Shown here: positions 19,333-26,068 of the stretch, in pieces | Position numbering within the stretch: the stretch's first letter is position 1 | Layout: every line of letters begins with the position of its first letter | From: Vicinamibacterales bacterium | GTDB lineage: Bacteria; Acidobacteriota; Vicinamibacteria; Vicinamibacterales; UBA8438 | Direction: 5' to 3' | NCBI GenBank assembly: GCA_965246995.1 | Contig: OZ252008.1 | Location: 3,522,925 to 3,586,924 of the forward strand | Length of the DNA stretch: 64,000 bases | The notes under the pieces: generated by a model | The model's input: only the letters and a program-made list of their open reading frames with translations | What the model was told of the DNA's origin: nothing | Databases searched by the model: none | Position numbers and translations under genes: made by a program

Positions 19333-20382
19333 CTATCCCGCCGTCGTCCCGGTGCAGCTCGACCCCAGCCCCGCCGTGCATCCAAAGCAGTGGCGGTCGG
19401 TCACGATGGTCCGCGCCTCGAGCGCGGCCAGGTCGAAGTCAGCGATGTGCCGTGGGGATCGCCCGTTCACCGGCAGATCCAGCATCTGATTGAAGTCGCA
19501 GTCGTACAGCGTCCCTTCCCACCCGACCGACAACGTGTTCCGGCACATCACTCCGCGCGCCGCCGCCGGGTTGTAGGCGTCGACCAGCCGCCCCATGTAT
19601 GCCTCGAGATTGTCGGATTCAATCAACCACTCCAGAAACCGACTGATCGGCATGTTGGTGATGGCGTAGAGCGCATCGAACCGGATCCCGTACAGGCGGT
19701 CGAGTTCCCGTTTCCATTCCTGCTCGAGCGACGGCTGCCCCAGCGGCAGGTACGCCCCGACCGGATTCGTCACCAGCACCAGCCGCAGCCCGGACCGGCC
19801 ATCGCCGTAGCCCACCGCGTTCAATCGCTGCAATGCCTCAATTGACCGCTCGAACACGCCTTCACCCCGCTGCGCGTCCGTGTTGAGCTGGCGGTAGTGC
19901 GGCAGCGAGCAGATCACCTCCACTTGGTGCTCGGCGAGAAAGTCGATCAGATCCGCCTGCGACGGCAGGTTCAGCACCGTCAGGTTGCAGCGATCGATCA
20001 CGTGCCGATCCAGCGCCCGGCACTGCTCCACCAGCCATCGGAAATTCGGGTTGAGTTCCGGGGCGCCGCCGGTGATGTCGACGGTCGGGATGGCGGTCGC
20101 ACGCAGCGCCTGGACACATTGCGCCATCGTCTCCCGCGTCATTGCCTCCCGCCGGTCCGGCCCCGCGTCAACATGGCAATGCCGGCAGGTCTGATTGCAC
20201 AGTTTCCCGACGTTGACCTGCAGGATCTCAATCCCCGTGGGGCGCAGTGGATGCAGCCCCTCGGCGCGGAGCGCCGCCGCAAACTCGCGCTCGACCGGGA
20301 GGCGATGGAGCACGGCGAGCTGTTCGCGCGGCGCCGCGAGCGGCGCCTGCCGCGCGGCAAGGGTTGGCAACGTTATGGCCAT
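19333..20382 (-). CDS. arsS: Arsenosugar biosynthesis-type radical SAM protein (ArsS family)
   Basis: QVNVGKLCNQTCRHCHVDAGP, YDCDFNQML, HCFGCTAGLGSSC. Confidence 0.82.
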   Translation of the reverse strand: MAITLPTLAARQAPLAAPREQLAVLHRLPVEREFAAALRAEGLHPLRPTGIEILQVNVGKLCNQTCRHCHVDAGPDRREAMTRETMAQCVQALRATAIPTVDITGGAPELNPNFRWLVEQCRALDRHVIDRCNLTVLNLPSQADLIDFLAEHQVEVICSLPHYRQLNTDAQRGEGVFERSIEALQRLNAVGYGDGRSGLRLVLVTNPVGAYLPLGQPSLEQEWKRELDRLYGIRFDALYAITNMPISRFLEWLIESDNLEAYMGRLVDAYNPAAARGVMCRNTLSVGWEGTLYDCDFNQMLDLPVNGRSPRHIADFDLAALEARTIVTDRHCFGCTAGLGSSCTGTTAG

Positions 20383-20434: not shown

Positions 20435-20770
20435 TCACATGCCGATACGGCCGGCATGATTCCGCATCTGCACGCCATGAACCAGCGATGCTCCGCCGCG
20501 GATGGCCGAGGCGACATGGACCGCTTCGGTCATCTGGTCCATGTCGGCCCCCTTCTCCAGGGCGTCGGCGCTATACGCATCGATGCAATACGGACACTGC
20601 ACCGCGTGGGCGACCGCAAGAGCAATCAACGACTTCTCGCGCGCCGATAGCGCACCGTCCTCGAACACCGCGTTGTACCAGGCGAAGAACTTCTCCGCCA
20701 GTTCCGGCCGGTTCTTGCCCATCTCGGGAAACCGTTCGAGGTCGTCCGCATGGTAGTACGTATCGTGCAT
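20435..20770 (-). CDS. AhpD/CMD-family peroxidase-like protein typically paired with ArsS
   Basis: GALSAREKSLIALAVAHAVQCPYCIDAY; AIRGGASLVHGVQM. Confidence 0.88.
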   Translation of the reverse strand: MHDTYYHADDLERFPEMGKNRPELAEKFFAWYNAVFEDGALSAREKSLIALAVAHAVQCPYCIDAYSADALEKGADMDQMTEAVHVASAIRGGASLVHGVQMRNHAGRIGM

Positions 20771-20936
20771 GGTTCCCGGCATCCCTCCCAAACCGGCCGG
20801 CGCTACGGCTACAGGCGTTTACATTTCCATCGTAACCCCAAACCCCGGCAGGGTGCGACGCGGAGGGCCGGATGCATCCGACCAGTTGCGCGAGGAGCAC
20901 GTCTATCTTTCCGCTTCTCTCACGCGAGCCGGTGTA

Positions 20937-20969
20937 CTGACAGAATCTGACAGTTCAACCGTTTAGAAC
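20937..20969 (+). promoter_or_regulatory. Putative WYL-regulator operator/promoter 1
   Basis: CTGACAG-aat-CTGACAG-N10-TAGAAC, ending 9 nt before the WYL ATG; same layout at 22068. Confidence 0.65.
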
Positions 20970-20978
20970 AGAGCCCTC

Positions 20979-22001
20979 ATGAGTCGCCCTGCCCGCCTGC
21001 TGGATCTCGTGCAACTCCTGGCCGGACGCCGTGCCCTGCCACTCAAGGAAATCGCCGAACGGTTCGAGATCTCCGAGCGGACGGCCTACCGCGACCTCTC
21101 GGAACTCTCCCTCCGCGGCATCCCGGTCACGCGGAACGACTACGGCTACCGCTTGCTCGACACAGCCGTAATCCGGCCCCTCGCCCTCACCGCAGCCGAG
21201 CGCGCCGTGCTCAAGCTGCTGCTGAACAATCCGGCGGCTCGGAAAGCGCCCGACGTGGTCAAGGCGCTCAAGCTGGTCGAAGCGAAGCTCGACCTGGCCA
21301 CGCGGCAGATAGAAGAAACGCCCAGCGCGCTGACGCTTGCCGGTCCGGAGCGGTCGGGCAAACTGGAAGCAGGACTGACGTCGCGTCTCGAAGAAGCTAT
21401 CGCGGGACGACAACCGATCTCGATCAACTACCGCTCCCTGGCGGGCGGCCTCCAGGCGTGGCGCGGTGTCGACCCGTACGAGATCTTCCACCGCGAGAAC
21501 GCCTGGTACCTCGTCGGCCGCTGCCACCTTCACGACGAACCGCGCACCTTCAGGCTCGACCGCATCTCGCAGCTCAAGCCGCTGACCGGCGCCTTCCGGC
21601 GTCCCGACTTCGATATCAACGCTTTCCTCGAAAGCACCTGGGCGATCTACCGCGGGCGCACACGGCACGACATCGTCATCCACTTTGACGCGTCGCTCGC
21701 CCCGCTGATCGAACAGGGCTTCCACCACCCCACGGAAAAGGTGGAGAAGCTGGGCAACGGCAACCTCGAGTACCGCGTCGAACTCTCGCACCTCGACGAG
21801 ATCGCCCGATGGGTCGTCAGCTTCGCCGGCCAGGCACGAGCCGTCCAGCCGCCGGTGCTCACTATCCTCGTCCACGACATCGCCTCCGCCGCTCTGGACG
21901 CCCACAATCCCGAGACCCCCCAGCCGCCCAGCGGCCACCAGGAGGGGCTCCCCGGACTCTCCACGCTGGACAAACCGACCAGCCAGCGCCCGTTGATCTG
22001 A
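20979..22001 (+). CDS. HTH-WYL-WCX transcriptional regulator (PafC/DriD/YafY-like)
   Basis: wHTH IAERFEISERTAYRDL; VDPY..NAWYLVGRCH..RTFRLDRI; C-terminal WVVSFAG. Confidence 0.92.
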   Translation: MSRPARLLDLVQLLAGRRALPLKEIAERFEISERTAYRDLSELSLRGIPVTRNDYGYRLLDTAVIRPLALTAAERAVLKLLLNNPAARKAPDVVKALKLVEAKLDLATRQIEETPSALTLAGPERSGKLEAGLTSRLEEAIAGRQPISINYRSLAGGLQAWRGVDPYEIFHRENAWYLVGRCHLHDEPRTFRLDRISQLKPLTGAFRRPDFDINAFLESTWAIYRGRTRHDIVIHFDASLAPLIEQGFHHPTEKVEKLGNGNLEYRVELSHLDEIARWVVSFAGQARAVQPPVLTILVHDIASAALDAHNPETPQPPSGHQEGLPGLSTLDKPTSQRPLI

Positions 22002-22067
22002 CGCTCCGATCCGACACTCGCCACGAGTCAGCGGCTTCCGTCACGTTCTGCGGAGGCCCTCAAGGTC

Positions 22068-22100
22068 CTGACAGGTTCTGACAGGTTCTCCGCCTACGGT
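22068..22100 (+). promoter_or_regulatory. Putative WYL-regulator operator/promoter 2
   Basis: CTGACAG-gtt-CTGACAG-N10-TACGGT. Confidence 0.65.
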
Positions 22101-22193
22101 TAGACCGTCGCCCGGTCGTCACCCGACACACGTGGTCAAGGCCGGCATTCGGCCCGGCGACCAATCCCGGTCCGGGCATTCTGGAGGAAACAG

Positions 22194-22652
22194 ATGATCG
22201 CTAGATTCATTGGACTCATGATCGCTTTCGTTCTGCTGATGCCGATCGGCGCCGCGGCACAGAACGTCACTGCTGAAGTCGGTGGAGCAGGTTTCGGCGT
22301 GGCAGCCCGCACGTCATTCGGTACGGTGTCAAGTGGTGTAGGGGGAGGTTACGCCGGCGCGTCGGTGGCCATCCCGGACACGACATGGCTTCAGCCATAC
22401 GTCGCTGTCAATGGCTTCTCCGATCTCGGCGTTCTCTGGCAGGCTGGCGCCAACCTCAGGCTCGGCCCGGAACGGTGGCTCGCTCGCCCTGCAGCACGCA
22501 TAGGCGCGGCGTTCAGCGACGGCGGAGAAGTTACCGGCGGCATCGGCGTCCATGTGGGTCGCAACGCTGGCGCAGCGTTCACGGCCGACTGGGGATCAGT
22601 CGAGGGGATCGTGTTTTCCGTGGTCCACATCGGCGCCTTCTTCAGCTTCTAG
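22194..22652 (+). CDS. Small outer-membrane beta-barrel-like secreted protein
   Basis: GGAGG RBS; signal peptide; Gly/aromatic alternating strands; C-terminal Phe (GAFFSF). Confidence 0.65.
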   Translation: MIARFIGLMIAFVLLMPIGAAAQNVTAEVGGAGFGVAARTSFGTVSSGVGGGYAGASVAIPDTTWLQPYVAVNGFSDLGVLWQAGANLRLGPERWLARPAARIGAAFSDGGEVTGGIGVHVGRNAGAAFTADWGSVEGIVFSVVHIGAFFSF

Positions 22653-22658
22653 CTGGGC

Positions 22659-22688
22659 GGGCCGGCGCACGAGGATGCGCGCCGGCCC
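22659..22688. terminator. GC-rich 10-bp hairpin (terminator or mRNA stabiliser)
   Basis: GGGCCGGCGC...GCGCCGGCCC just after the stop codon; no U-tract. Confidence 0.35.
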
Positions 22689-22804
22689 ATCCGGCCCGAC
22701 CTTACCCTGGCAACCTGCTGCACGATACGTAAACATGACGCCGTCCTCCTGCTGGGCTCCGGGCATTCGATAGCAGGGCAACCAATCGAGAAGGACAAAA
22801 TCCC

Positions 22805-24388
22805 ATGCATTCGCTCATCCCCCGTTTCGCCTTTTCCGTCCTGCTTCTCGGACTTCTGCTCCTGCCGGACCAAGCGGCAGCCCAGCGCTGGAACGACCTT
22901 GAAGATGCGCTCGAAGGCCGGGAGCTGGTCCTCAGACCAACCTTCGAGGGCCGCCGAAAGGTCTACCTCGACATGGAGAACGACAGCGTCTTCGCGCTCC
23001 ATCGGGGAAACCGCCTCTTCCCTCTTCGGGAGAGCGAGACGGTCCGGATTACCGACGCCGACCCGGAGGATGACCACATCGAACTCGAACTGCAGAGCCC
23101 ACGTCTCGGCCGTGGCCGTGTCGATTTCTACGGCCCGGCGCCATCGGCCGAGGACTTCGAGAGCTGGCTGGATGAAGTGTTCGAGGTGACGACCGCTGAA
23201 GCTGACTTCCAGCGTTACGTCGGGAATGGGCAGAGCCGGACGCTGCACACCCGGGGGGCGAATCACCTACCGGCAACGGCAGACCGGCAGCTTTTTGCGA
23301 CGGAGGCCGATGCGGTTGCCAGTGGGTACAACCGCTGCGGCGTCTGTTTTGTCCCTACCCCCGATGTCTCGAACTACGAAACCGAGCGTTCGCTTGCGCT
23401 GATGTCGTTGCAGCAGGTGCAGTCCGCGTTCTATCCGCTTGTCGATACGGAACTGCAGGAGTACGTCGAAGGGCTCGGGGAGCAGGTTCTTGCCAACTGG
23501 CCGGTTCCTCTCAAGGGCTACCGGTACCGGTTCCAGGTGGTGGACGCCGACGACATTAACGCGTTCGCAGTCCCTACGGGATACGTCTTCCTGACCCGCG
23601 GGCTCCTTGAATCCCTCGAGGGTGAGAACGAAGTGGCGGCAATCCTCGCCCACGAGATCGCTCATGTCGAGAGTCGTCACAGCTACCGCATCTGGCGAAA
23701 CGCGCAGCGGGCCTCGACCATCGCCGGGATCGTAGGCATTCTGGCTGGGGGCACCGACAACGTCGCTGACGACATCGTCGCTACGATGACCTCCTTCACG
23801 GCGAACCTGTTCATGGCGGGTCACGGGCGCGACCGTGAACGCGAAGCAGACCTGTTCGCAAGCTTCTACCTCAACGAGGTGGATGTCGGTGATGAACCAC
23901 TGCTGAATTCGTTCCGCAAGCTCAAGTTTGCTCGCGACGCCTACGATCCCTTCGGGGACGGGAGCGGCGGGTTGTTCGCGAGCCACCCGCACATCGACGA
24001 GCGTCTTGACAGGGCTACCGGAACAGTCACCACGTCGTTCGCTGAAGAAGACGTGTTCCAGGGCGTGACGGACAATGGTGAGTTGGTTGCCACCCTCCGC
24101 TTCGACGTGCAGCGGCTCTTCCGGAACGAGCTGGACGTGGTCGCAACGCTTTCGACAACCCCGGAACTTGGCGAAGAAGACGACGTTAATACGATCAACA
24201 TCCGGGTGGCCGGTCAACGCATTGAACTGAGAGAGCGGACGGCCGAGAAGATCTTCCCAAGCGATGAGGTCTCGGCAGTCTTCGGCAACGATGGCGCACG
24301 GGGATTGATCGAGGGACCGATCGAGTCGGTAGATCTCGACTTGCGGAACGTCGACCGCTGGGAGCGCGTCGCGGCCATCGCACCGTAG
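22805..24388 (+). CDS. Secreted M48-family metallopeptidase with an Ada-like metal-binding module
   Basis: INAFAVPTG, HEIAH, REREAD, FASHP; upstream YVGN..TLH...F.TEADA..SGYNRCGVC. Confidence 0.85.
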   Translation: MHSLIPRFAFSVLLLGLLLLPDQAAAQRWNDLEDALEGRELVLRPTFEGRRKVYLDMENDSVFALHRGNRLFPLRESETVRITDADPEDDHIELELQSPRLGRGRVDFYGPAPSAEDFESWLDEVFEVTTAEADFQRYVGNGQSRTLHTRGANHLPATADRQLFATEADAVASGYNRCGVCFVPTPDVSNYETERSLALMSLQQVQSAFYPLVDTELQEYVEGLGEQVLANWPVPLKGYRYRFQVVDADDINAFAVPTGYVFLTRGLLESLEGENEVAAILAHEIAHVESRHSYRIWRNAQRASTIAGIVGILAGGTDNVADDIVATMTSFTANLFMAGHGRDREREADLFASFYLNEVDVGDEPLLNSFRKLKFARDAYDPFGDGSGGLFASHPHIDERLDRATGTVTTSFAEEDVFQGVTDNGELVATLRFDVQRLFRNELDVVATLSTTPELGEEDDVNTINIRVAGQRIELRERTAEKIFPSDEVSAVFGNDGARGLIEGPIESVDLDLRNVDRWERVAAIAP

Positions 24389-24417: not shown

Positions 24418-25602
24418 CTAAGACAGGTTCTGCAGCCCGGTGAGCAGCGTCGCCAGCTCACGGAGGCCGATCGCTTCGATCCCCTCGGCCATCGGGTAGC
24501 GCTCATCGCCCGAGTAGACGACGAACGATCGGTCGACTTCCAGGTCGTCGCGCGCATGGTAGAAACCGCGCGCCAGTGCGGGGGCCAGACCGTGTTTCAC
24601 CTCGATTGCCCAGCGACCGCGGTTCCCAGGCAGGTCGAGCAACAGGTCGATCTCCGCTCCGGCTGACGTCCGGTAGAAACCAGCGTCGGTGAAAGATGGT
24701 GCGACGCGCAGCAGGCTCTCAATGACGAAACCCTCCCAGCTTGCGCCGACCACCGGATGGCCCATGAGTGCGCTGTAGTCATCGATCCGCAGCAAGGCAT
24801 GCAACAGACCGCTGTCGCGCACGTACACCTTCGGCGACTTGACGAGGCGCTTACGGACGTTCGCATGGACAGGCCGCAGCCGCCGGACCAGCAGCAGATC
24901 GACCAGAAGATCGATGTAGCGGCTGACGGTCGGCGAACTGACCGACAAAGACGCCGCGAGCTTCGACGCGTCCAGCAGCGTCCCTTGACCGTGCGCCAAC
25001 ATGGTCCAGAGCCGCTCCAGTGTTTCCGCGGGAACACGCGGCCCGAACTCCGGCACCTCCCTCTGCAGGTAGGTGCGTACCAGGTTTCCCCGGTAGGCAA
25101 AGCTGTCGACATCGTTCTTCGCGAGGAAGCTGAGTGGGAATCCGCCGCGCAACCAGAGCTTCGTGGTCGACGCCGCATCCGGCGCCGCTTCCAGTACGTC
25201 GAACGGCTGCAACTCGACGTACTCGATCCGACCCGCCAGACTCTCACCCGACTGACGCAGCAACTCCATCGATGCCGATCCGAGCACCAGGAAGCGACCG
25301 GTCCCCCGACCCTCCCGGCGCCCCCGATCGATGATCCCGCGGAGCTCCTGAAAGAGTTCCGGCGTTCGGTGAATCTCGTCGAGGATTACCAGCCGGTCCT
25401 CGTAGTCCCGCAAGAAAAGCGCCGGTGCGGCGAGCTTGTTGCGGGCCTCGGATGTCTCCAAATCCAGGTAGAGAGCGTCCCCACCTGTGGCTATCTGATG
25501 CGCCAGCGTCGTCTTTCCCGCCTGGCGCGGGCCAATCAGCGCGACCGCCGCCTGGCGCTGAAGACCGCGCGCCACGGCCGCTGCCGCCCTTCGGTCCATC
25601 AT
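24418..25602 (-). CDS. AAA_14 ATPase with DUF4143 and a PD-(D/E)XK-like C-terminus
   Basis: GPRQAGKT, ILDEIH, LGSAS, ESLAGR, RGGFP, KSPKVYVRDSGL, EIDLL...AIEVK. Confidence 0.9.
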   Translation of the reverse strand: MMDRRAAAAVARGLQRQAAVALIGPRQAGKTTLAHQIATGGDALYLDLETSEARNKLAAPALFLRDYEDRLVILDEIHRTPELFQELRGIIDRGRREGRGTGRFLVLGSASMELLRQSGESLAGRIEYVELQPFDVLEAAPDAASTTKLWLRGGFPLSFLAKNDVDSFAYRGNLVRTYLQREVPEFGPRVPAETLERLWTMLAHGQGTLLDASKLAASLSVSSPTVSRYIDLLVDLLLVRRLRPVHANVRKRLVKSPKVYVRDSGLLHALLRIDDYSALMGHPVVGASWEGFVIESLLRVAPSFTDAGFYRTSAGAEIDLLLDLPGNRGRWAIEVKHGLAPALARGFYHARDDLEVDRSFVVYSGDERYPMAEGIEAIGLRELATLLTGLQNLS

Positions 25603-25639
25603 CCTTGTAATATTATTGCACTGCATTAATATTACAAGG
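25603..25639. promoter_or_regulatory. AT-rich palindromic operator candidate
   Basis: CCTTGTAATATTA-N11-TAATATTACAAGG, perfect 13-bp arms, between divergent starts. Confidence 0.7.
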
Positions 25640-25654
25640 TTATAGGGAGGATCC

Positions 25655-26068
25655 ATGCCCAAGCTTGCGACCGCCATCGCCAGTGCCTTGACCCTTCTTG
25701 TCCTGACCCCACTCGCAGCGGCCCAGCAGCCCGAACAGCCGGAGAAGTACCTGCTGCTCGCCACCAACCGCACCGGGACCATGCAGGACGAGCTCAACGA
25801 GGCTGGCGCGCGCGGCTACCGATTCGCAGGCACCCAGGGTGGCGAGACCTCCTTCGGCGGCAATGAGGCGGTCGTCATCATGACGCTCGACCCCGACGGC
25901 CAGCGGTTTCAGTACATCCTGCTTGCCACGAACCGCACCGGCACGATGCAGAGCGAAATGAACGAGGCGCCGCCGGAGTACAACTTCGTTGGCATGACCG
26001 TGTTCCGCTCGACGTTCGGTGGCCGGGAGGCCGCCGTCATCCTCGAAGCCGAAATCACCAACGACTGA
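25655..26068 (+). CDS. Hypothetical secreted protein with a duplicated domain
   Basis: GGGAGG RBS; signal peptide; Y.LLATNRTGTMQ.E.NEA and FGG.EA.VI each occur twice. Confidence 0.8.
   Translation: MPKLATAIASALTLLVLTPLAAAQQPEQPEKYLLLATNRTGTMQDELNEAGARGYRFAGTQGGETSFGGNEAVVIMTLDPDGQRFQYILLATNRTGTMQSEMNEAPPEYNFVGMTVFRSTFGGREAAVILEAEITND

Follow-up and report, generated by a model that had tools for sequence, protein, structure and literature searches.

The 64,000-nucleotide stretch analysed here (hereafter the window; contig OZ252008.1 of assembly GCA_965246995.1, positions 3,522,925 to 3,586,924, from a Vicinamibacterales bacterium) carries the gene of a WYL-family regulator, which is bracketed by two copies of a 17-bp box. 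The analysis suggests a regulator like DriD and PafBC, with a box and a promoter geometry that are conserved in a family of the Acidobacteriota, and with a distant type I-G cas3 operon as its main identifiable target. It is highly probable that the box is the site of this protein and defines this regulon. The reading that we favour, at somewhat better than an even chance, is that the regulator is an activator which senses single-stranded DNA (ssDNA) and controls its own gene, a neighbouring unit of envelope proteins and cas3.

The box at the WYL gene and its conservation

The regulator gene occupies positions 20979 to 22001 of the window on the plus strand, as do all elements of this paragraph, and encodes a protein of 340 amino acids (aa) with a winged helix-turn-helix (wHTH), a WYL and a WCX domain. 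Ahead of it lies box 1 (20937 to 20953; CTGACAG-AAT-CTGACAG, which can also be read as TGAC-N7-GACA), where the WYL protein probably binds its own promoter. It is followed after 10 nt by the -10-like hexamer TAGAAC (20964 to 20969), which stands 9 nt ahead of the ATG at 20979. Box 2 (22068 to 22084; CTGACAG-GTT-CTGACAG), a predicted promoter element of a downstream unit, begins 67 nt past the WYL stop codon and has the hexamer TACGGT (22095 to 22100) at the same distance of 10 nt. An earlier annotation made without database searches (the sequence-only reading) had described both strings with their common orientation, 10-bp period and distance to a TA-initiated hexamer, and all of this is confirmed in the sequence. 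The likeness of the two copies is confined to the 17 bp and the hexamer.

When up to two mismatches were allowed, the pattern was found at these two places only in the window, which gives four matches over the two strands; shuffled sequences had a mean of 0.41, and none of 100 shuffles reached four. The same annotation had proposed a genome-wide scan for CTGACAG-N3-CTGACAG-N10-TA, which was run on the whole genome (4,553,290 bp in one contig, 66.9% G+C) and returned exactly two exact matches, both adjoining the WYL gene, with none for a reversed control pattern. Furthermore, the heptamer CTG[A/T]CAG occurs 250 times in the genome, and only three pairs of it lie 40 bp apart or less, each with the 10-bp period. 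These are box 1, box 2 and a site at cas3 that is described below.

The 9 nt that separate TAGAAC from the ATG at 20979 hold no Shine-Dalgarno-like run, and this ATG is the earliest possible start codon in the frame of the WYL gene. The implied leader would measure about 0-3 nt, and it can reasonably be inferred, as had been proposed, that the transcript is near-leaderless. Metatranscriptome contigs were rejected as evidence for transcription start sites or co-transcription, being contigs at a depth of 2.5-3 with possible carry-over of DNA. Two RNA-library runs of one study contain identical short pieces, whose starts at 20966 and 22124 both fall past a box, and one piece covers 22553-22820; the start at 20966, if it is real RNA, would lie 10 nt upstream of the expected transcription start.

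Conservation was followed in 104 genomes of the same family (Vicinamibacteraceae, Acidobacteriota), which are kin and not independent, so that the counts given here are footprints rather than statistics. Orthologs of the regulator occur in 56 of the 104 genomes and in six of the 18 genera, as one copy each and with 52-82% identity; outside the family, the next relatives are just 26-34% identical. Each of the 56 ortholog loci was taken together with 1.0-1.5 kb of flanking sequence, two of them being truncated by contig ends, and the box was scored within two mismatches. Downstream of the WYL stop codon, CTGACAGGTTCTGACA(G/C/A) was found in 37 of the 56 loci, at most 300 nt past the stop in 35 of these 37 and overlapping the stop codon in three. 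Upstream, 26/56 loci have a box (27 sites). Its position relative to the start codon is -41/-40 in 12 of the 56, drawn from three genera, and otherwise -77/-78, -122 to -128, -231 or -685 to -789. The motif is thus present beside orthologs, one of the points by which the sequence-only reading had proposed to judge its claim, and both the autoregulatory position and the putative regulated downstream unit that it described are conserved in part of these loci.

At 10 nt past the downstream boxes (N10), the hexamer reads NANNNT in 35 of 37 cases, 23 of them TANNNT, and past the 27 upstream boxes it reads TANNNT in 12, NANNNT in 10 and TA only in five. The 10 nt between box and hexamer hold almost no information, and by our own arithmetic TANNNT is expected at a fixed position in about 0.5% of cases by chance at this base composition. 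Two other features of site 2 were considered and ruled out. The hexamer TAGACC (22101-22106) resembles TAGAAC, but orthologs keep TANNNT at N10 and not at N16, and a LexA-type GTTC-N-GTTC repeat within the site has a second GTTC that is not conserved in relatives.

A third site at a type I-G CRISPR-Cas locus

The sequence-only reading overlooked a third site, which lies 112 kb upstream of the window (G000:C1:3431885-3431901) and reads CTGACAGATTCTGTCAG, a perfect 17-bp palindrome. It sits between the divergent genes of a cas4-cas1 fusion and cas3; on the plus strand the box is followed by 10 nt and then by TACCCT, pointing at cas3. The three box-plus-hexamer elements of this genome precede the regulator gene, the gene after the regulator, and cas3. 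The type I-G locus is complete, with profile matches for Cas3g (8.3e-256), Cas8g (Csx17; 8.5e-182), Cas7g (Cas_GSU0053; 6e-42), Cas5/6g (GSU0054; 4.4e-146) and a Cas4g/Cas1g fusion (2.1e-247), and with a CRISPR array that adjoins cas4-cas1 (36-nt repeats, about 18 as counted from the span; G000:C1 about 3428307-3429640, L005 6308-7641). No cas gene was found among the eight open reading frames (ORFs) neighbouring the WYL gene.

A search of the 104 genomes for TGACAG-N4-TG(A/T)CAG without mismatches gave 122 unique places, and 21 of these lie within 2.5 kb of a WYL ortholog. A further 21, from five genera and 18 genomes (this one and 17 relatives), have a Cas7g match at a distance of up to 7 kb, and every one of them is on the upstream side of the gene. 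By our own arithmetic about 0.4 would be expected there by chance, given that 14-kb windows around 116 Cas7g matches make up about 0.3% of the searched DNA. The remaining 80 exact boxes are close to the background of genomes without an ortholog, and some of them have the typical spacer. Seventeen cas-linked places were fetched, of which 16 hold box, hexamer and ORF; the first ORF past the box encodes Cas3g in 11, Cas7g in one and a protein without a PADLOC match in four. In genomes G008, G011 and G024, the box is followed by either an operon of variant order (Cas7g-Cas5/6g-Cas3g-short Cas8g) or the gene of a Cas3-like helicase. Of 25 cas-box orientations, 20 have NANNNT at N10 or TANNNT at N11. 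Genes for Cas7g are found in 49/104 genomes, from the same six genera as the orthologs together with one genome of a seventh genus. These Cas7g/GSU0053-like genes are multi-copy in many genomes of the family (seven matches in G110, six in G077), and many copies stand in the variant order with a short Cas8g of 335 aa, after which G008 has a CARF protein.

The extent of the regulon was estimated with a position weight matrix made from 79 unique sites, those of the genome itself included. Three sites in the genome scored 33.8-37.1 bits, followed by the other strand of the cas box at 28.6 bits, two sites at 25.3 and 18.5 bits, and a remainder of at most 12.6 bits. Their contexts are the WYL gene, the secreted protein, cas3 and cas4-cas1, a membrane protein and a nuclease-helicase. 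On the best reading the regulon would be small, comprising the regulator's own gene, the adjoining unit, the cas3-cas8g-cas7g-cas5/6g operon and two weaker candidate promoters.

Both of these additional candidates are weak. Candidate site 4 (TTGACAGAAACTGTCAG, G000:C1:4282433, minus strand, 25.3 bits) is near a membrane-protein gene, has neighbouring genes that belong to no family, and is kept in G003, G004 and G005. Its position within the final codons of a 301-aa ORF means that coding constraint may explain its conservation. Candidate site 5 (C1:4531359, 18.5 bits), whose box is degenerate or absent in the orthologs of G001-G003, precedes the gene of a 1157-aa protein (G000:C1:4531402-4534875; L135 2403-5876) that combines an RNase_H_2/RecB-like nuclease with an SF1 helicase, and the helicase part (AAA_11/AAA_12) resembles Mokosh MkoA. 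Its ATG stands 8 nt past TACGGT, orthologs keep TATGGT followed by 8 nt, and the gene is probably leaderless.

Box-like sequences were also observed in other settings. In G015 (L036, C1:5113778-5113828), two inverted copies of TGACAGGTCATGTCAG lie 35 bp apart beside a PDDEXK_4 nuclease gene (PADLOC candidate PDC-S26). In G003 and G002 (L031 and L032), TGACAGGAA(A/G)TGACAG-N10-TAGAAT stands ahead of a DUF932 gene, which is accompanied by DUF2442 in G003; the copy in G002 has an AbiEi-family gene beside it, a hint of a mobile or defence-related setting. Eight identical copies of another repeat (about 55 nt) were seen in G000:C1 (e.g., at 2225330, 2300935 and 3847279); this repeat holds CTGACAG and CTGTCTG without the design of the box and may be the end of an insertion sequence or a unit like the repetitive extragenic palindromes.

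Kinship, promoter design and proposed mode of action

Pfam searches of the regulator gave matches above cut-offs for HTH_11 (3.9e-10, residues 6-58), WYL (1.7e-21, residues 135-200) and WCX (7.5e-10, residues 229-306), with which the secondary structure of a model agrees. The ORF at 20979-22001 holds the only WYL-domain match of the genome. NCBIfam searches returned no family for the protein, and the PADLOC profile of cas-associated WYL proteins (PDLC01457) matches it at 3e-43. Both in sequence and in fold search, the activators DriD and PafBC match the regulator better than do the repressors CapW and BrxR. The sequence search of the Protein Data Bank (PDB) found PafBC (6SJ9) first at 3.6e-19, PafB at 3.4e-10 and DriD at 3e-10, against 0.028 for CapW (7TB5) and 0.076 for BrxR (7QFZ). 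Foldseek, used with a structure model built on 38 orthologs, placed DriD (5e-15) and PafBC (1.3e-13) before BrxR (3.1e-09) and CapW (4.1e-09). DriD and PafBC activate repair genes, and CapW and BrxR repress other defence systems.

DriD, a homodimeric activator of Caulobacter crescentus (PDB 8TP8, 9PFQ), has the same domain order as the regulator and is about 23% identical to it. Arginines R37 and R41 of DriD read G2 and the guanine opposite C4 of the half-site (PMC10853764). Their places in a HMMER alignment are occupied by R34 and R38, which are invariant in 56/56 orthologs and presumably read G and C of each half-site. The position of DriD Glu40, which touches C1, holds Tyr in 49 orthologs and Phe in seven; this would suit a T at half-site position 1, the half-site being TGAC here and CGAC or CGTC in DriD. 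Eight of the 11 named ssDNA contacts of DriD appear to be kept (Y151, R162, R172, Y177, R189, F191, which is Trp in DriD, R192 and Y224), and S172, R176 and R288 do not, in a mapping through the HMMER alignment that is approximate at such low identity. Those of the kept contacts that were checked are invariant or nearly so.

The CTGACAG heptamer is nearly palindromic, so that a tandem pair with a 10-bp period is also a near-palindrome. The box is best written as C-TGAC-N7-G(A/T)CA-G, which would make it a DriD-type pseudo-palindrome for a homodimer. The sequence-only reading held that DriD binds direct repeats, which is not so, given that the DriD box is described as a pseudo-palindrome, CGNC-N7-GNCG, with an A/T-rich centre (PMC10853764). 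The two kinds of box share the half-site geometry NGNC-N7-GNCN and this type of centre. The "direct" (TGACAG) and "inverted" (TGTCAG) forms of the sites studied here differ by one base, at half-site position 3, which contributes little in DriD (PMC10853764). The claim of a new WYL motif thus survives in part: the motif is conserved and tied to the WYL gene, but its geometry fits DriD and makes it a variant of a known one.

The sites of the genome itself suggest the design of activated promoters, with the box in the place of the -35 and at a fixed N10 from a TANNNT-like hexamer. This arrangement is found at three of three sites, where the hexamers are taken as -10 elements by sequence alone. 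The TGACA cores of the box stand 11 nt and 21 nt from the hexamer. Both distances are outside the spacing of the sigma-70 family, and therefore neither core is usable as a -35. A consensus scan of positions 20700-22900 found no sigma-70-type promoter, and the same scan found TTGACA-17-TAAACT ahead of the 16S rRNA gene, from which it follows that the organism uses a canonical -35 elsewhere.

Promoters of comparable design are known for both activators. The DriD site overlaps the region where a -35 would be, with an equal distance to the -10 in all its promoters, which lack a -35 (PMC13004042), and DriD too has a site in its own promoter (PMC10853764). In the two DriD promoter DNAs given in the Methods of PMC13004042, CANNNT starts, by our own reading, 11 nt past the second half-site, the same distance as here. 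The PafBC consensus is tGTCgg-N10-tA-N3-T, in which a -26 element replaces the -35, and the inducer is ssDNA (PMC8635444). TGACAG-N10-TANNNT aligns with this formula base for base, and the comparison with PafBC spacing that had been drawn before is a fair one.

There are also differences from both systems. DriD occurs in Alphaproteobacteria and its regulon is of the recA/recJ/didA repair and division type, whereas the regulator described here belongs to Acidobacteriota and has as putative targets an operon headed by type I-G cas3 and genes of secreted or envelope proteins, with no target of the DriD type detected. PafBC, which acts by sigma adaptation in mycobacteria and other actinobacteria, is a heterodimer or fusion of two WYL paralogs of which one HTH reads the DNA. 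In contrast, a single WYL gene faces a two-half-site box here, this being the sole WYL match of the genome, and each of the 56 genomes with an ortholog has just one copy of it. PafBC controls about 150 genes, and the matrix scan points to at most about five promoters here.

Activation is favoured because of the kinship with DriD and PafBC and because of the activator-type promoter design. In the mechanism that we propose, the 340-aa protein would bind the 17-bp box as a homodimer and its WYL pocket would take up ssDNA. The ssDNA-bound protein would then recruit the housekeeping RNA polymerase, or adapt it, to promoters that are otherwise weak and have no usable -35. Its targets would be its own nearly leaderless gene, a small secreted protein with probably an M48 protease, and the cas3 operon 112 kb off. 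We infer from the comparisons above that the protein binds the box, that it activates, what its ligand is and where transcription starts.

Several observations weigh against this proposal. No upstream box was found within two mismatches in 30/56 orthologs, so autoregulation is not universal. Most boxes have A at the centre of both heptamers, as in a direct repeat, and not the A/T of a perfect palindrome, and an asymmetric binding mode is possible. The structure model of the regulator is mediocre (predicted local distance difference test, pLDDT, 71.5; predicted template modelling score, pTM, 0.47). Three of the 18 genomes with a cas-linked box have no detectable ortholog: G077 has only a piece that matches regulator residues 1-71, G079 has none, and the only WYL protein found in G107 (280 contigs) is 26% identical. 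Conversely, in the stretches examined, the type I-G loci of G001 and G002, where the ortholog is present, showed no box within three mismatches. The orthologs of G001-G003 do not preserve candidate site 5. With regard to the earlier proposal of induction by nucleic-acid damage, the matrix scan shows no broad DNA-damage or repair regulon, unlike those of DriD and PafBC, the region upstream of recA not having been inspected separately. Furthermore, the CRISPR-linked WYL regulator sll7009 is a repressor (PMC4012209), as are CapW and BrxR.

The strongest alternative keeps the same protein, box and regulon and makes the protein a repressor like CapW, BrxR or sll7009, which would leave the box on binding ssDNA or another ligand and thereby de-repress its targets. 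We regard this as unlikely but deserving of serious weight. Characterised defence-linked WYL regulators are repressors on palindromic promoter sites (PMC11662680, PMC4012209). CapW and BrxR have the same wHTH-WYL-WCX architecture, are linked to anti-phage systems and bind palindromes of about 20 bp, and ssDNA releases CapW (PMC11662680). A prediction of WYL regulators for CRISPR-Cas dates from 2014, and a type I-D system of Synechocystis is repressed by sll7009 (PMC4012209). The overlap of the box with the -35 and spacer region would suit a repressor too, the cas box of this genome is a perfect palindrome in a divergent intergenic region, and a cas box that is kept after the ortholog is lost (3/18 genomes) is easier to understand if the loss means constitutive expression. 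However, the protein resembles DriD and PafBC far more than it does CapW and BrxR, both in sequence and in fold search, and its promoters have no -35 at a workable distance, in an organism whose rRNA promoter has a perfect TTGACA. A strict N10 over three promoter classes and five or six genera is, moreover, the signature of the DriD and PafBC activators (PMC13004042, PMC8635444). The gene is not adjacent to the defence system that it would control either, lying 112 kb from cas3 with promoters of activator-type design, whereas the genes of CapW and BrxR adjoin the systems that they repress. sll7009 is encoded inside its type I-D locus. It too is a WYL regulator of type I CRISPR-Cas, but its control is reported as negative and concerns type I-D (PMC4012209), whereas a distant type I-G locus and activation are suggested here.

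It is much less probable that the box is read by another factor, or is the composite promoter of another sigma factor, with the WYL gene as one member of the regulon. Such a reading draws on the fact that binding of the WYL protein to the box is deduced from sequence, and that a few genomes lacking an ortholog (G056, G077, G079, G107 and G113) have exact boxes with the typical spacer. Against it, the box brackets the WYL gene in six genera and takes an autoregulatory position there, the half-sites and N7 fit the DriD read-out with both reading arginines invariant, and the distances of the TGACA cores from the hexamer do not fit sigma-70-family promoters. Exact boxes are also fewer in the 48 genomes without an ortholog (36 sites in 23 genomes, by eye mostly with unrelated spacers) than in the 56 genomes with one (86 sites in 41). 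Finally, although two direct copies around one gene can resemble insertion scars, an origin of the pair by chance or as scars of a mobile cassette, with no regulatory role, is scarcely credible, given the shuffles and the genome-wide count, the end of the likeness at 17 bp and the hexamer, the same element ahead of cas3g operons with no WYL gene nearby, and the conservation of both copies over orthologs at 52-82% protein identity.

The downstream unit and the possible meaning of the proposed circuit

The first gene past box 2 (22194 to 22652, plus strand) encodes a glycine-rich protein of 152 aa with a hydrophobic N-terminus, as judged by eye. It has no match in Pfam, NCBIfam or PADLOC and is possibly a small outer-membrane barrel, to which weak leads from an atlas search point (PagL, DUF481); orthologs stand at the same place in two relatives (L010 and L013). 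It is followed by the gene of a 527-aa M48 metallopeptidase (22805 to 24388, plus strand; Peptidase_M48, 2.7e-27) with a distant likeness to BepA, LoiP and HtpX that is below cut-offs. This gene is probably part of the box-2 unit, co-transcription being a prediction. Within the flanks taken, 8/56 loci, the present one included, have an M48 ortholog downstream of the WYL gene and on its strand, and in L016, L017, L101 and L011 it directly follows the box. At 22653-22695, directly past the stop codon of the 152-aa ORF, lies a GC-rich, long-stemmed hairpin that lacks a T-run, and the fold of the whole spacer after this ORF is no better than shuffles (z -0.58).

In relatives, the first genes past the box amount to 35 ORFs in 13 clusters, picked automatically and with some wrong frames. 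About 13 of the 35, from four genera, encode a small protein (about 150 aa) whose start is signal-like and which contains two hydrophobic segments. About five encode an M48 peptidase and three a DUF6361 protein (L102, L105 and L110), and the others include an outer-membrane beta-barrel protein and a Big_2 lipoprotein. A further DUF6361 gene in the genome studied here (C1:1738324-1738884, 73% identical) had no box at its place. The regulated neighbour is thus a variable slot, mostly for exported proteins, with signal-like N-termini judged by eye; a signal-peptide heuristic gave 15/35 and was too strict, as it missed the protein of the window itself.

The surroundings of this unit hold other genes on the minus strand. 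Just upstream of the regulator are the genes of a radical SAM and DUF3641 protein (19333-20382) and of a carboxymuconolactone-decarboxylase-family protein (20435-20791). An ATPase gene with AAA_14 and DUF4143 (24418-25797) is convergent with the M48 gene; it matches the PADLOC candidate defence family PDC-S01 at 2.1e-83, the only PADLOC match among the eight neighbouring ORFs of the WYL gene that were tested.

A more speculative extension of the activator reading, which we offer tentatively and consider rather doubtful, is that an ssDNA sensor of the DriD/PafBC kind has been reused in Vicinamibacteraceae as an infection alarm and not as a repair regulator. Single-stranded DNA from phage replication, or from the shredding of targets by Cas3, would turn on cas3 and the Cascade genes from a promoter that depends on the activator where a -35 is lacking, which would amount to a positive feedback loop for type I-G interference. 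Fast-changing secreted, membrane and outer-membrane proteins, together with the M48 envelope protease, would be co-induced as a surface response, and these envelope proteins could remodel the surface or halt division, as small membrane proteins of the DidA type do.

Among the papers listed in our literature search, at the level of listings and abstracts, there was no report of WYL control of a type I-G system and none of an activator-type WYL promoter at cas genes. The means by which CRISPR-Cas is switched on are known for few systems and mostly involve repressors. The predicted family-wide circuit, defined by sequence, would tie a WYL sensor of activator type to the cas3 promoters of type I-G systems in the Acidobacteriota, for which regulatory genetics hardly exists. 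It is described by an exactly delimited 17-bp site, by promoters of fixed geometry and by a set of three to five targets, and it appears to combine in one system the GNC-N7-GNC read-out of DriD with the N10 spacing of PafBC. This raises the questions of whether the DriD/PafBC mode of activation extends beyond Proteobacteria and Actinobacteria, and of whether ssDNA may feed back on CRISPR interference in these Acidobacteriota.

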